Sequence record: MT611523.1
Strand: one strand, 5' to 3'
Length of the DNA: 64,000 nucleotides
From: Escherichia phage DK-13
Below are positions 14,985 through 63,413 of the stretch, in pieces (position 1 is the first letter of the stretch; every line of letters starts with the position of its first letter). The notes below the pieces were generated by a model. It did not search any database, had not been told where the DNA came from, and was given only the letters and a program-made list of their open reading frames with translations. The position numbers were made by a program, and so were the translations under genes.

Positions 14985-15016
14985 GGAAAATAAAAAAGGG
15001 ACTCCGAAGAGTCCCT
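14985..15016 (-). terminator. rho-independent terminator
   Basis: - strand GGGACTCTTCGGAGTCCC then TTTTTTATTTT, right after stop of the 15021..15182 ORF. Confidence 0.7.
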
Positions 15017-21689: not shown

Positions 21690-22039
21690 TTGGTGAGCTC
21701 CTGGAAGTCCTGGGCGAACTTATCAAAAGACTGATTAATCTGTTTTTCAACTAATTTAGGCTTCGCGGCCACAACCTTAGTACGTTTTGCATCTGCACGG
21801 AGTTTATCATTTTCCTTCTGCAGGTGTTCAACATATTCCTGACGTTGCTGGTCAAGGAGATTAATTTGATTAATCTGGTCTTTTACTGATTGTAGATTTT
21901 TCGCGTTATCTTCTGCGACTTTGGTGACTTCCGCCACCGCTGTCTTGAGATTATCCACTTTTGCTTTTAGATAGAAACCACTACCAGCAGTTACTACCAG
22001 GGCGAGCATAAGCCCTGCAGTGAGATTACTTATTTGCAT
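21686..22039 (-). CDS. i-spanin (inner-membrane spanin subunit)
   Basis: 117 aa, N-terminal TM helix then coiled-coil; immediately upstream of o-spanin. Confidence 0.65.
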   Translation of the reverse strand: MQISNLTAGLMLALVVTAGSGFYLKAKVDNLKTAVAEVTKVAEDNAKNLQSVKDQINQINLLDQQRQEYVEHLQKENDKLRADAKRTKVVAAKPKLVEKQINQSFDKFAQDFQELTK

Positions 22040-22533
22040 AACTTGATGATTACCTCAACAATATCATCCTGGGATAAACCATTCAGGAGGATGTGATTTG
22101 TGCTGTCAGATGCTGAAATGCGGAACTGATTACCAACTTCATCCGCCATATCATCCTGGGTTAACACTGGATGTTTAATTCCCAGGCGGTGTTGAAGTGT
22201 CAGGGGTTCAACCACAACATAACAAACACATCCATTGATATGTACATTAGGTTGGGTCTGGTTAATGAACACTTCTGCATCATATTTAACCAAATGGTTC
22301 TTTAAGAATTCAACCATTTCAGGAACAGATTCATGCAGTGCTTCTTTCCGCTCTTCTGATTTTTTATCGCGATATTCTTTTTGTTTCGCCTTCAACTTTT
22401 TGTTAGAGGCGAGTTTTTTCCGCAGGTCAGTCATAAGACCAATTTTCTTGGTCCCTTTATAGACATAAATTCCGTCATGACGGTCACCATATTCATTGAC
22501 AATCATTTCATTTGAAATCAGTTGCATATCCAT
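22030..22533 (-). CDS. hypothetical protein, candidate Alc (transcription-termination factor) by position and size
   Basis: Start moved to ATG after GAGGAAAATATT; 167 aa (same as T4 Alc); between spanin genes and rnlA; sequence not recognised. Confidence 0.4.
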   Translation of the reverse strand: MDMQLISNEMIVNEYGDRHDGIYVYKGTKKIGLMTDLRKKLASNKKLKAKQKEYRDKKSEERKEALHESVPEMVEFLKNHLVKYDAEVFINQTQPNVHINGCVCYVVVEPLTLQHRLGIKHPVLTQDDMADEVGNQFRISASDSTNHILLNGLSQDDIVEVIIKLCK

Positions 22534-22546
22534 AATATTTTCCTCA

Positions 22547-22780
22547 TTAGTAGCGGTTATAACCCCGGGGACCAAAAGAGTTGGCACCCAGGCGCTCATC
22601 TTTCTTTTTGGCTCTTGCTCTAAACCCAGAATCACCTGTTTGAGCTTTCAGTTCTTTTAACAATTTGGCCTTCAGGTCAGTAATGAAACCAATCCGGCGG
22701 TCTCCCTTATAGACATAGATTCCATCATTTCTGTCACCATATGCCTTTGTAACTCTGTCATTTGTAATTAAGTTTAACAT
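22547..22780 (-). CDS. hypothetical 77-aa protein, paralog of the N-terminus of the 22030..22533 protein
   Basis: YGDRNDGIYVYKGDRRIGFITDLKAKL vs YGDRHDGIYVYKGTKKIGLMTDLRKKL; own promoter. Confidence 0.5.
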   Translation of the reverse strand: MLNLITNDRVTKAYGDRNDGIYVYKGDRRIGFITDLKAKLLKELKAQTGDSGFRARAKKKDERLGANSFGPRGYNRY

Positions 22781-22811
22781 GTTTTGGTCCTCATCAGTAG
22801 TTGATGGAACC

Positions 22812-22850
22812 ATTATGTATAGAAAGAAGGGGCTTGTACACCCCTTTTTA
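22812..22850 (-). promoter_or_regulatory. compact terminator-promoter: -35 TGTACA sits in the loop of the rnlA terminator hairpin, -10 CATAAT
   Basis: - strand AAAAAGGGGTGTACAAGCCCCTTCTTTCTATACATAATGG. Confidence 0.5.
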
Positions 22851-23987
22851 TTATTCAGGAAGGATTACTTCCGCTTGGTAGTCTAACGGAATGTAAAGTT
22901 TATGATTTTTAAGGAAAACTTTATTGATTTGAGCAATCGTTTGTTCAGTTTCCTGTGGGCGTTGATAGGTGTTCATTAATACGGAGAACAATCCCGGGTA
23001 AGGTTTGCACAACTCTTGACCTTTAATCGCAAACTCGCGACGGTCTTTTCCTGCCAATTGTTTCTGAGCATCAAGCAACAATCCAAGAGTGTTGGACAGA
23101 TAATCCAGATGCGTTACAGTAAAGGCATTAACTTTTTCGCGAGCATAAGTATCGCCAGTAAACATGGCAATAACATCATCCGCCCCGCCAGCAACAACAA
23201 CTTCAAACAGTCGCTCATTATTATTAATGGAGTCTTTAGTATGATGCAGAGCACAATACCATTCTGTTTTCATCTTGAACTTCTGACCACTTGCCAACTC
23301 GTAGACGAAGCCTTCAATCTCTTTCATACCACGGACATTCTCAATGCTCGCCGGGTCATATGCTTCAACCAGGAAAGGACGGAGCGCAGCATCTTTGAAC
23401 AGTTCCTGATAAGGAATATATTCACCAGTTTCATTATGGCGAACGTTCAGTAAAATCAGGTCACGTTCCTGGTAAGGCAAAACAATGCGGTTGGTTGGTG
23501 CAACATATTCCATATTGCATGTATAACCAGCTTCAGTGATTTCAGTTACGCGAGTCCTGAATGCACTGCGATGCTCTTGTTTAAACACCTGCAAGGATTC
23601 AGCAGCTTGGGAGCTTTTGATTGACCCTTTGGATTTAAAGGCGATATTAGTCTGGTCCATATAAGTAGAAACCAAGCTACCATCAGCTTTTGCAGTAACC
23701 AGGACAACCTCATCAAGGTTAAGGTCCATGGTCATTGGATTCTCACCCAGATTAAAGAATTTTTCCATAGGACGGGCGGCAATGCGAACTGGACCATTGT
23801 CATCCATTTCAAACATAATGCCACGACACTCCAGCGCATCATCAAGGAGCCAATCACTATAGGAAGCATAGTTATAGCTAAAGATGCGGAACTTAGTTTC
23901 AAATGGAGAAACAAAATCCGTATAGAAAAACTTACCTTTATCGGATTCGGCGCAAAGCTTCATTAAGTTATCATATAATTCAATCAT
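22851..23987 (-). CDS. rnlA: RNA ligase 1
   Basis: 378 aa; FRIFSYNYASYSDWLL.DALECRGIMFEMD...RPMEKFFNL.ENP matches remembered T4 Rnl1 (gene 63). Confidence 0.9.
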   Translation of the reverse strand: MIELYDNLMKLCAESDKGKFFYTDFVSPFETKFRIFSYNYASYSDWLLDDALECRGIMFEMDDNGPVRIAARPMEKFFNLGENPMTMDLNLDEVVLVTAKADGSLVSTYMDQTNIAFKSKGSIKSSQAAESLQVFKQEHRSAFRTRVTEITEAGYTCNMEYVAPTNRIVLPYQERDLILLNVRHNETGEYIPYQELFKDAALRPFLVEAYDPASIENVRGMKEIEGFVYELASGQKFKMKTEWYCALHHTKDSINNNERLFEVVVAGGADDVIAMFTGDTYAREKVNAFTVTHLDYLSNTLGLLLDAQKQLAGKDRREFAIKGQELCKPYPGLFSVLMNTYQRPQETEQTIAQINKVFLKNHKLYIPLDYQAEVILPE

Positions 23988-24400: not shown

Positions 24401-24420
24401 AAAGGGCCGAAGCCCTTTCC

Positions 24421-25599
24421 TTATAGATATTTACGGAAACTAGCAAGAACATTCTCATCGACGTCATTGTCAATCTGGGCTACCAGGTAAGCAGACAACT
24501 CAACTTCTTGTGGTGCAGATTGCACATTATCAGAGTTAAGATATTCACGAATCCATGGAATCGGGTGCTTAGTAGATTCTAACACGATTTCACAAGGGAG
24601 ACCGCATTGCTTCATACGAGAAACCGTCAGGTAATCGATGAACCGGTTAAGAATCTCGACGCTCAGCCCAGGGAGTCCACCATCTTTAAACAGATGCACG
24701 GCCCATTCTTTTTCCTGGCGATTAACTTCCATGAAAATGGCTGCGGCTTCTGCTTCACATTCGTGAGCGATTTTAACCCATTCGTCACCGTCAACACCAG
24801 TTTGCAGCTGACGAAGAATATATTGGGTCCCCTTAAGGTGGAGCTGCTCATCACGGGCGATGAACTTCATTATCTTCGCATTACCTTCCATGATTTCCAT
24901 GTTCTTATGGAAGTTAAAGGTGCATGCGAAAGATACATAAAAACGAATAGCTTCCAGGGCGTTAATAACATGCAGGCAGAGATAAAGAGACTTCATCAAT
25001 GCTCGTTTGGCGATAGCTTCTTGTTTGATAGCTCGTTCCAAACGTTCGTCCGCTTCGGGAGTTTCTTTGGCCAGTTCAACAAAAGCAATCTGGTTTTGCC
25101 ATTGACGAGTTTTATTCAGAACATCATCATAGTAATGACCAATGGATTCTGCGCGCTTCATGATTGCATCATCTAACAGGATTTCGTCGAATACCTTCGC
25201 CGGGTCCGTATAGAGATTTCGCATGATGTGCGTATAAGAACGAGAGTGAATTGTCTCGCTGAATGTCCAGGTCTGAATCCATGTATCAAGACTCGGGTCG
25301 GAAACTAATGCGGCTAATGCTGCAGCTGGAGCACGTCCCTGGATACTATCCAGAAGTGATTGGTATTTCAGGTTATTGGTAAAAATATTTTGTTGATGTT
25401 CAGGAAGCTTATTAAATTGGGCTCCATCCATCATCAGGTTTACTTCCTCAGGTCGCCAGAAGTACGAGAGTTGACGCTCTGTCAACTCTTCAAACTGTTT
25501 GTGTCGCTGGATATCATAACGGGCGATGCCCAATCCAGAACCGAAGAACATCGGCTCGGCTAAAACATCCACCGGAGTGGTATTAAAAACTGTACTCAT
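24421..25599 (-). CDS. nrdB: ribonucleotide reductase small (beta) subunit, uninterrupted
   Basis: Diiron RNR beta features; start moved to MSTVFNTTPVDVL (ATG at 25597-25599); no intron. Confidence 0.9.
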   Translation of the reverse strand: MSTVFNTTPVDVLAEPMFFGSGLGIARYDIQRHKQFEELTERQLSYFWRPEEVNLMMDGAQFNKLPEHQQNIFTNNLKYQSLLDSIQGRAPAAALAALVSDPSLDTWIQTWTFSETIHSRSYTHIMRNLYTDPAKVFDEILLDDAIMKRAESIGHYYDDVLNKTRQWQNQIAFVELAKETPEADERLERAIKQEAIAKRALMKSLYLCLHVINALEAIRFYVSFACTFNFHKNMEIMEGNAKIMKFIARDEQLHLKGTQYILRQLQTGVDGDEWVKIAHECEAEAAAIFMEVNRQEKEWAVHLFKDGGLPGLSVEILNRFIDYLTVSRMKQCGLPCEIVLESTKHPIPWIREYLNSDNVQSAPQEVELSAYLVAQIDNDVDENVLASFRKYL

Positions 25600-26324
25600 T
25601 AATTTTTCCTCTTTAAAATTCTTCCACGTTTCCAACCTGAAGGTATAATACCACCCTTTTCTATAAGCGTACAAGATGAGCCATCATTAATCCAAATTTT
25701 ACCGCGTATTCCTTTATATGCTCGGTCCTTGACTTCTGCAAAGGTTGCATCCGGTTTATATGACCATCTGAATCCATATGCATATTGGAATTTCCCTTCT
25801 GCACAATATTTTAGATTTGATGCATTACCGTTAACATGCCGAGCAGCTTCGGCAATTGACTGGAAGCTTTCAATAAATTTTCCGGCTAAATCAAATTTGA
25901 AAATTTTAATTGATGGAACCGAAGTTCTATTTGCAATTGAAACTTGTTCTTTAGATTTATCGGAATGATGCTTACCTAACATTCCCTTTGGATGTGGATT
26001 ATTTTTAAAATATTCTTTCATATGTTTGGAAGAGGACTCTGCAAATCTAAGTCTATGCCATTCATATAATCGATTATTCAATCTATTACCAAATTTATCC
26101 GTACACATTAATGTAATAGCACAAAGTAATCCATGAGTTCTATATATTTTGTACAGTAATTGATGCGCAACGAAATGTTCTCGAGCTGATAATTTAACTA
26201 AATTGGATTTGTCATCTGTGCCGCCCATGCATTTGGGAATAATATGATGGGATTCGGTATAGCCTTCTAAAGGAGAGGCTTTCCGCCTCTCAATTAGAGA
26301 ATCATATATTTTCTTATAATTCAT
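25599..26324 (-). CDS. mobE: HNH homing endonuclease (MobE-like) inserted between nrdA and nrdB
   Basis: HNH motif ESHHIIPKCMGGTDDKSNLVKLSAREHFVAH; NUMOD-like GKHHSDKSKEQVS; ATG overlaps nrdA stop, stop overlaps nrdB ATG. Confidence 0.8.
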   Translation of the reverse strand: MNYKKIYDSLIERRKASPLEGYTESHHIIPKCMGGTDDKSNLVKLSAREHFVAHQLLYKIYRTHGLLCAITLMCTDKFGNRLNNRLYEWHRLRFAESSSKHMKEYFKNNPHPKGMLGKHHSDKSKEQVSIANRTSVPSIKIFKFDLAGKFIESFQSIAEAARHVNGNASNLKYCAEGKFQYAYGFRWSYKPDATFAEVKDRAYKGIRGKIWINDGSSCTLIEKGGIIPSGWKRGRILKRKN

Positions 26325-32950: not shown

Positions 32951-32979
32951 ATTATGCCTTAGCTCAAGGGGATTGTACA
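32951..32979 (-). promoter_or_regulatory. early promoter (TGTACA, 17 nt, CATAAT) fused to gene 32 terminator
   Basis: - strand ...TTTTTATTTTAAAAAAGTAGTGTACAATCCCCTTGAGCTAAGGCATAATGATTCCATC. Confidence 0.5.
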
Positions 32980-32984
32980 CTACT

Positions 32985-33016
32985 TTTTTAAAATAAAAAA
33001 GGGACCCGAAGGTCCC
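32985..33016 (-). terminator. rho-independent terminator after gene 32
   Basis: - strand GGGGACCTTCGGGTCCC then TTTTTATTTT. Confidence 0.7.
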
Positions 33017-33983: not shown

Positions 33984-34622
33984 TTAATTATACTTCAAAG
34001 TGATTGAAGCGATAAACTTTTGAAATTCAGAATCAAGATGGGGATTCCATCCTAATTTGAATTTATTTATAATGGAAATACCGGTCGTGTGTGTACACGG
34101 TAAACCAGTTTCTCTTGCCATAATAACTGGACCAAGTCTGGAAGTTCTATGCGGTCCTATATACCAGTCATAATATATTCCAGCATTTAACCAAACTAAA
34201 TGAGCACCTTTAGCTATTGTATTAGGATGTTCCCAAGGCAATAAACCTTTAAGGTGAGAATTTAATTTCATATTTATTTTATGTGATTCTGATTTTGGTT
34301 TACCTTTTAATGAAGACTTAAAGGTTCCACGAGCACTCGCCTTATTGAAAAACAATGGCGATTTAACCACATTATAGTGTTGATGGTAAAACTCTTCTTC
34401 TGACAACACATCGTCACACACATGCAGAATTTTAACGGTTGGTTTTTCAGACAATGCCTCAATAAAACGAGATTGTTTGCATGAAGACCAGTATTCTTTA
34501 TTATGTGAATCAATTATAACACCATTTTCAAAAGCACAATTATGCTTTGACCCAATGTAAAAATAAGGAGGCGTTTTATTTTTCAGACGAGTTTCAAATG
34601 TAAACCAATATACAACATTCAA
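33984..34622 (-). CDS. homing-endonuclease-like ORF (GIY-YIG/NUMOD-like, SegG position between 32 and 59); no ATG start, possibly degenerate
   Basis: Tracker start codon is TTG; first in-frame ATG only at codon about 118; N-terminus VVYW...YFYIGSK resembles a GIY..YIG motif pair; GKPKSESHKINMKLNSHLKG resembles NUMOD3. Confidence 0.4.
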   Translation of the reverse strand: MNVVYWFTFETRLKNKTPPYFYIGSKHNCAFENGVIIDSHNKEYWSSCKQSRFIEALSEKPTVKILHVCDDVLSEEEFYHQHYNVVKSPLFFNKASARGTFKSSLKGKPKSESHKINMKLNSHLKGLLPWEHPNTIAKGAHLVWLNAGIYYDWYIGPHRTSRLGPVIMARETGLPCTHTTGISIINKFKLGWNPHLDSEFQKFIASITLKYN

Positions 34623-50130: not shown

Positions 50131-50158
50131 TAAAATAAAAAAGGACCCCGAAGGGTCC
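50131..50158 (-). terminator. rho-independent terminator downstream of gene 52 and the 32-aa ORF
   Basis: - strand GGACCCTTCGGGGTCC then TTTTTTATTTT. Confidence 0.7.
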
Positions 50159-63378: not shown

Positions 63379-63413
63379 GGGGCCATTATACTCCGGCCCC
63401 AAGAGTTTGTACA
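63379..63413 (-). promoter_or_regulatory. early promoter with inverted repeat spanning -10
   Basis: - strand TGTACA-aactcttGGGGCCGgag-TATAAT-gGCCCC. Confidence 0.5.

Follow-up and report, generated by a model that had tools for sequence, protein, structure and literature searches.

The 70-base gap between rnlA and a 77-aa Alc-like gene on the minus strand of the window (the whole 64,000-nucleotide stretch of Escherichia phage DK-13 DNA that was analysed) is, in our judgement, reasonably likely to hold a compact cassette of the PeSL (promoter-early stem-loop) type, which would extend over 22850..22781 and separate the expression of an early Alc-type gene from transcription of rnlA.

In 33 phage records there is a match to the region, with 90-98% identity; where a genus is assigned it is Gaprivervirus (VR7, SP18, VR20 and others), and by sequence comparison the window phage is a VR7/SP18-like Gaprivervirus, a T4-type member of the Straboviridae. 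Annotated relatives, from which the gene identities were taken (rnlA itself, and the 77-aa gene as VR7ORF243c or SP18 'alcb'), give the minus-strand gene order nrdB, denA, rnlA, 77-aa gene, alc, pseT.3. From the tandem stop codons TAATAA of rnlA, this strand continues as AAAAA-GGGG-TGTACAA-GCCCC-TTCTTTCTATA-CATAAT, and the sequence that an earlier note had given for the locus, 22850..22812, was confirmed letter for letter. The features of the locus are:

22853..22848, minus strand: tandem stops TAATAA of rnlA (RNA ligase 1), read in the sequence, with the identity of the gene from annotated relatives
22846..22827, minus strand: hairpin 1, AAGGGGU / GCCCCUU with loop GUACAA, seven pairs (four G-C, two A-U and one G.U)
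22840..22835, minus strand: -35 box TGTACA, a genus-specific variant of the T4-type GTTTACA, placed by its family and by alignment with T4
22828..22821, minus strand: U-rich tract TTCTTTCT, 3' of hairpin 1 and inside the 17-nt promoter spacer
22817..22812, minus strand: -10 box CATAAT, 17 nt from the -35; the form CATAAT is found in four of the nine family members
22811..22786, minus strand: hairpin 2, GGUUCCAUCA / UGAUGAGGACC with loop ACUAC, directly 3' of the -10 and absent from the earlier note
22805, minus strand: predicted transcription start (A), placed by spacing, 7 nt past the -10
22792..22788, minus strand: Shine-Dalgarno sequence GAGGA of the 77-aa gene, aligning with ATGAGGAC upstream of T4 alc
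22780, minus strand: start codon ATG of the 77-aa gene
22547..22780, minus strand: 77-aa gene, paralogous to the N-terminal region of Alc (Pfam ALC, E = 3.4e-10)
22030..22533, minus strand: alc

The 77-aa protein is 48% identical to the N-terminus of Alc over 64 aa, and its gene is, by this alignment, a partial tandem duplicate of alc. All ten Gaprivervirus relatives that were aligned possess it, and the seven with annotated records have it marked as a gene; it is absent from T4, Dhakavirus, Winklervirus, Gelderlandvirus, Mosigvirus, Tegunavirus and Karamvirus. The gene is under purifying selection, with variable sites distributed 5/2/16 over codon positions 1/2/3. Just 3 of the 70 intergenic sites vary among 11 genomes, and third codon positions are variable at 44% in rnlA and at 21-25% in denA, the 77-aa gene and alc; the whole spacer between rnlA and the 77-aa gene is under strong purifying selection, although its conservation could alternatively reflect features of promoter strength or homogenisation between cassette copies. 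An Rfam scan of 22500..23000 in E-value mode matched no family. Upstream on the same strand, the 20-nt gap between nrdB and denA contains a small hairpin, GGGCUUCGGCCC with TTTTT (24415..24404, minus strand), a possible transcriptional attenuator ahead of denA and rnlA. Between nrdA and nrdB lies a 241-aa ORF (25599..26324, minus strand) with NUMOD1 and weak HNH matches, which is probably a homing endonuclease; VR7 and SP18 have just a 38-nt gap between these two genes, and T4 has mobE at the equivalent position.

Comparison lends good support to an early sigma-70 promoter with a predicted start at A22805, and the proposal in the earlier note of a promoter for the 77-aa gene is upheld by a strand-specific family of nine copies, by alignment with T4 alc and by the A at +7. 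The pattern TGTACA-N17-YATAAT has nine exact matches in the window, all on the minus strand, where 0.03 would be expected:

63413, 54019, 52967, 52555, 50120, 32979, 31570, 22840 and 21294, minus strand: family copies matching the pattern exactly, given by the first base of the -35

Every one of these copies precedes a minus-strand gene with a Shine-Dalgarno sequence, and the genus-specific early-promoter family has the consensus (a)aaaGTAG-TGTACA-N17-YATAAT. It is membership of this family that places the promoter above chance, and not generic scanning, since a consensus scan over 6 kb returned 16 promoter-like sites against 15.1 expected, which is background. Each hexamer of the site agrees with the T-even early consensus TTTACW-N17-TAYWAT at five of six positions, and the further hallmarks of T4-type early promoters are found as GTGTACA, a 17-nt spacer, CATAAT (with C for T at the first position of the -10) and A22805 at +7; an A seven nt past the -10 is likewise found in all eight other genera compared, making nine genera in total. 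In T4 itself, GTTGTTTACAAGTCCCTCGTGTTGTGTTATAGT (TTTACA-N17-TATAGT) comes immediately after the rnlA stop, upstream of alc, and the two phages align through TxTACAAGyCCCT (TTTACAAGTCCCT...TATAGT) and, further on, through ATGAGGAC before the start codon. The alc gene of T4 is early both as RNA and as protein, and rnlA is early as RNA and late as protein (PMC9697503 supplement). Because T4 alc is early, no T4 middle promoter has been mapped there, and neither a MotA box nor TATAAATA lies nearby, we regard the reading as an early promoter as well supported. A middle promoter was rejected, the MotA box TGCTT being missing from the region, including at 11-13 nt upstream of the -10, as was a late promoter, for which the nearest minus-strand TATAAATA is at 34071..34064 and TATACATA at 22821..22814 carries a mismatch.

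The -35 box lies within hairpin 1, in which A22846-T22827, A22845-T22828, G22844..G22841 with C22829..C22832, and T22840.G22833 are paired around the 6-nt loop GTACAA. Folded alone, the hairpin has an energy of -11.1 kcal/mol and a z of -2.9 (4 of 200 shuffles fold as well), and a 61-nt stretch containing it gives a z of only -1.3. It is invariant in 10 relatives except for a T>C change at 22827 in CJ20 and TH57, which breaks the outer A-U pair and removes a proximal U. The earlier note had described a hairpin enclosing the -35, and as a structure this is supported by the seven pairs and the z of -2.9; hairpin 1 is probably a selected structure. Its designation in the same note as a terminator fared less well. 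It is plausible in that the stem is of the kind expected of intrinsic terminators (rich in G/C, some 5 bp or longer, closed by a short loop) and is followed by a U-rich tract, but it is weakened by the presence of only four G-C pairs, by the interruption of the U tract UUCUUUCU (six U in eight, with a free tail of CUUUCU if the A-U pairs form) and by a hairpin-plus-tail score of about -11, against about +43 for the terminators at 33016..33001 and 15015..14998. The classical formula for this score was applied with modern energy parameters, and it is used as a relative measure only, since an obvious RB49 terminator also scores below zero. The tail alone scores about 3.2, against 5.2 for the canonical terminators of this phage:

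33016..33001, minus strand: canonical terminator GGGACC-UUCG-GGUCCC followed by U6AU4
15015..14998, minus strand: canonical terminator GGGACUC-UUCG-GAGUCCC followed by U6AU4
about 50158..50143, minus strand: near-identical canonical terminator

At best, then, hairpin 1 would be a partial terminator or attenuator, or a 3'-end element. A generic terminator scan over 6 kb found four terminator-like sites against 4.6 expected, again background, and from the scan densities we estimate about 0.2 chance overlaps of a promoter and a terminator of similar type per 64-kb window. The 5' arm of hairpin 1 starts 5 nt past the rnlA stop, and a ribosome terminating on rnlA would, given the known footprint of ribosomes, cover this arm.

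The canonical terminators of this phage and the terminator that follows rnlA in RB49 resemble the site in having a G/C stem and a U tract directly past a gene and in lying upstream of an early promoter; the canonical terminators of the phage differ from it in their 6-7 bp G/C-rich stems, their UUCG loop, their uninterrupted U6 and their separation from the promoter. Each of the three near-identical canonical terminators is followed by an early promoter about 20-22 nt past its end, a 'separate' form of the cassette. In RB49, which is without alc, rnlA is followed directly by a plain terminator, GCGGGG-CTAGTT-CCCCGC with CTTTTGT (locus L026, 1641..1680, plus strand), and there is no promoter cassette.

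The paralogous promoters offer a closer comparison. Each Gaprivervirus genome has two to four places that match a 161-nt query, and in the window the copies at 32979 and 50120 agree with the site at 20 of 23 nt around the -35, the former also matching it at 24 of 25 nt over the -10 and the initial transcribed region. Both of these paralogues have a separate strong terminator, GG(G)ACC-UUCG-GG(G)UCC(C) with U6AU4, that ends 21-22 nt upstream of the -35; no such separate terminator is found at the 22840 locus. Only three differences distinguish the site from its two closest paralogues (GTAG>GGGG, and T>G in AAAAAGTAGTGTACAATCCCCTT), and all three fall in the stem of hairpin 1 and add pairs to it. 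Beyond CCCCTT, moreover, the spacer is T-rich at this site only, the paralogues reading GAGCTAAGG and GACCCGCTG.

These comparisons weigh against the alternative that the site is an early promoter and nothing more, in which the G4/C4 complementarity would be incidental and cause no termination, and any separation from rnlA would come from the hairpin that masks the Shine-Dalgarno sequence. We consider this rather unlikely. The CCCC tract 3' of the -35 is indeed a family feature, present without an upstream partner in the paralogues and echoed by the CCC run at the equivalent position in T4 (TTTACAAGTCCCT), and runs of G also precede the -35 at the promoters 8939 and 14976. The weak terminator score, the tolerance of T>C in the U tract of two genomes, and the other genera, which have no terminator here and rely on masking of the Shine-Dalgarno sequence, all fit a promoter alone as well. 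Such a reading does not account for the fact that every difference from the paralogues creates a stem pair, for the uniquely T-rich spacer, for conservation of that spacer far beyond what a plain sigma-70 spacer needs, or for the z of hairpin 1. Searches for variants of the hairpin 1 stem returned a single form: a distant blastn search of phages gave 33 records, all at least 94% identical, of the same genus and with an identical stem; a pattern scan of IMG/VR gave three contigs of the same genus with an identical stem; and a pattern scan of metagenomes yielded an identical contig from Gaprivervirus, besides a single chance match. The near-invariance of the locus means that no stem covariation is available for hairpin 1 or for the Gaprivervirus hairpin 2.

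It is much less probable that hairpin 1 serves mainly as a stability element or processing barrier at the 3' end of the rnlA mRNA, or as an antisense terminator on the plus strand. Hairpins at 3' ends commonly protect mRNAs from exonucleases, and the plus-strand reading (22812..22850) places a better T tract, CCCCTTTTTATTATT, after hairpin 1, with a tail score of 4.59 versus 3.21 and a folding energy of -11.8 kcal/mol. No plus-strand gene or family promoter, however, points into the site, and the A tract that yields the plus-strand T run belongs to the consensus of the promoter family, so that this run needs no separate explanation. Least probable of all, and in our view close to negligible, is direct control of promoter use by the hairpin, as RNA or as a DNA cruciform, the earlier note having suggested that hairpin formation and promoter use may be coupled: the -35 and hairpin 1 do overlap physically, and a polymerase that paused or terminated in the U tract would be positioned over the promoter, possibly occluding it for a short time, but transcripts from the site's own promoter start downstream of hairpin 1 and do not contain it, no family member needs such a structure, and 7-bp arms (with two A-T pairs and one G.T) around a 6-nt loop are too short for stable extrusion of a cruciform. 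The only reasonable link would be an indirect one, in which polymerases released in the spacer skip the -10 and promoter occlusion is reduced.

A second structure lies immediately downstream. Hairpin 2 folds at -12.7 kcal/mol (z of -4.6), an energy that no shuffle out of 200 reaches; the sole polymorphism within it, C>T at 22786, converts a G-C into a G.U and keeps the pair. As the predicted start at A22805 falls inside the 5' arm of hairpin 2, RNA from the site's own promoter keeps just a 4-bp remnant of it. To open the Shine-Dalgarno sequence of the 77-aa gene is calculated to require 8.4 kcal/mol when the RNA is a read-through product and 0.9 kcal/mol when it comes from the promoter itself, and in this folding model hairpin 2 would mask the Shine-Dalgarno sequence, and hence presumably translation, in read-through RNA only.

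The PeSL-type cassette that we favour could thus operate as follows. Host sigma-70 RNA polymerase would start at about A22805 from TGTACA-N17-CATAAT, giving a 25-nt leader with an open Shine-Dalgarno sequence. RNA coming through rnlA would form hairpin 1 first, which together with UUCUUUCU probably causes some of the polymerases to come off within the spacer; in this scheme hairpin 1 would attenuate transcription without being a strong terminator, and protection of the rnlA mRNA at its 3' end may be a further role. Read-through RNA would hold the 5' arm GGUUCC and, because this arm lies upstream of the promoter's own start, would form hairpin 2 and bury the Shine-Dalgarno sequence. The outcome would be that most translation of the 77-aa gene takes place on the early transcript from its own promoter. 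For this site we infer initiation, the efficiency of termination and translational masking from the sequence.

To place this arrangement among T4-type phages, we compared the rnlA-alc region of T4 and seven further genera, sampled by tblastn with RnlA. In Dhakavirus, Winklervirus, Gelderlandvirus, Mosigvirus, Tegunavirus, Karamvirus and Klebsiella phage Roth80, GTTTACA lies directly past the rnlA stop, followed by a 16-17-nt spacer, a -10 of the TAnnnT type and an A seven nt later; none of the other genera with an alc promoter has a terminator at the equivalent position. In T4, Dhakavirus, Winklervirus, Gelderlandvirus, Karamvirus and Roth80, opening of the alc Shine-Dalgarno sequence costs 5-14 kcal/mol in read-through RNA versus 0.1-1.9 kcal/mol in the promoter's own RNA, the anti-Shine-Dalgarno arm being the 5' part of the alc early-promoter spacer. 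This contrast, repeated in six genera, points to a conserved theme in which alc-type genes would be translatable only from their own early transcript. RNAalifold on nine phages (alignment A1; loci L011 1277..1343, minus strand, L015-L017, L019-L021, L024 and L027) predicts a helix of eight pairs between spacer and Shine-Dalgarno sequence, five of them with compensatory double changes; this helix, whose covariation spans at least six genera, is undescribed in the PeSL papers and in the review of post-transcriptional control in T4. In Mosigvirus and Tegunavirus there are promoter-embedded inverted repeats and the Shine-Dalgarno sequence is uncovered. We found no mapped alc promoter or terminator in the T4 literature that was searched, and the reviews of Hinton 2010 and Uzan & Miller 2010 are silent on alc leader structure.

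The six phages with a masked alc Shine-Dalgarno sequence resemble the site in the position of the promoter past the rnlA stop, in the 17-nt spacing, in TxTACAAGyCCCT and ATGAGGAC, and in masking that affects read-through RNA only. They carry the masking arm in the promoter spacer and have no terminator-like hairpin, whereas in Gaprivervirus a G4 upstream is the pairing partner of the spacer's C tract, and the anti-Shine-Dalgarno arm lies just past the -10. Gaprivervirus would accordingly appear to have kept the masking theme with a relocated arm, the old spacer C tract having become the 3' arm of hairpin 1. More broadly, and only as a tentative proposal, T-even-type phages may possess, in their rnlA-alc region, a translational gate that is conserved and built into a promoter, such that Alc is made only from its own early transcript; Gaprivervirus would have rewired this gate, recruiting the C tract into a hairpin through three substitutions relative to the paralogous promoters and acquiring a new arm between the -10 and +1.

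The architecture of the site has precedents. PeSL cassettes were found in RB49/phi1 and later in PST/T4 and nt-1/KVP40 (Arbiol 2010, PMC2839356; Comeau 2014, PMC4122927). They contain a sigma-70-like early promoter, a stem-loop of a G run and a C run, and a Shine-Dalgarno sequence, and are repeated in the genome; five subclasses are distinguished by the position of the stem-loop, one of which overlaps the -35 box, and reporter assays showed promoter and terminator activity for RB49/phi1 examples (PMC2839356, PMC4122927). In nt-1 the stem consensus is A3-4 G3 - loop - C3 T3-4 (PMC2839356, PMC4122927), which the A5G4 - loop - C4T2 of the site matches. Like PeSLs, the site combines a -35/N17/-10 promoter (here TGTACA-N17-CATAAT), a G-run/C-run stem-loop (AAGGGGU/GCCCCUU, enclosing the -35) and a Shine-Dalgarno sequence (GAGGA, 22792..22788), lies in an intergenic region (22850..22781, flanked by the TAATAA of rnlA and the start codon at 22780) and has several similar copies in the genome. 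In most copies of the promoter family, hairpin arms flank the -10, as in GGGGCC..TATAAT..GGCCCC at 63413, and this is one of the two commonest PeSL forms (Arbiol 2010, PMC2839356; Comeau 2014, PMC4122927).

The site departs from described PeSLs in several respects. It sits beside the conserved genes rnlA and alc whereas PeSLs lie among ORFans, its -35 is the variant TGTACA, and its stem is short and its U tract interrupted. It also has a second hairpin that would mask the Shine-Dalgarno sequence, a matter on which the PeSL papers are silent (the 2010 text never uses the word 'translation', PMC2839356). Of the A/T-rich stretch of PeSLs, the site holds TAATAAAAA (9 nt), interrupted by GGGG directly before the -35. 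PeSLs are associated with insertions, deletions and gene shuffling, and the site abuts a lineage-specific partial duplicate of alc. On structural grounds we assign the site to the PeSLs, and more precisely to the rarer subclass in which the stem-loop overlaps the -35, an architecture already known in T4-type phages. The predicted masking likewise recalls the T4 genes e, soc, 49 and I-TevI, whose ribosome-binding sites are sequestered in long transcripts and free in those from an internal promoter (PMC3014915); alc has no occurrence among the known cases there. In these genes, as predicted for the site, the promoter lies inside or beside the hairpin and only its own transcripts are translatable, but they use late promoters to delay translation, whereas an early sigma-70 promoter at the site would restrict translation to early transcripts.

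T4 biology already includes both composite cassettes and ribosome-binding sites whose use depends on an internal promoter, and no general concept is changed by these findings. If confirmed, the site would be a minimal example in which a terminator or attenuator, an early promoter and a translational mask share about 65 nt, helpful in annotating T4-type genomes and available to phage engineers as a small regulatory part. Seen across genera, the comparison suggests a deliberate separation of Alc-type host-shutoff genes from the rnlA message that precedes them, and that phage lineages achieve this through differing combinations of termination and Shine-Dalgarno masking. If the rewired gate proposed for Gaprivervirus is real, it would represent a natural interchange of transcription termination and translational masking in separating an early gene from its upstream neighbour.
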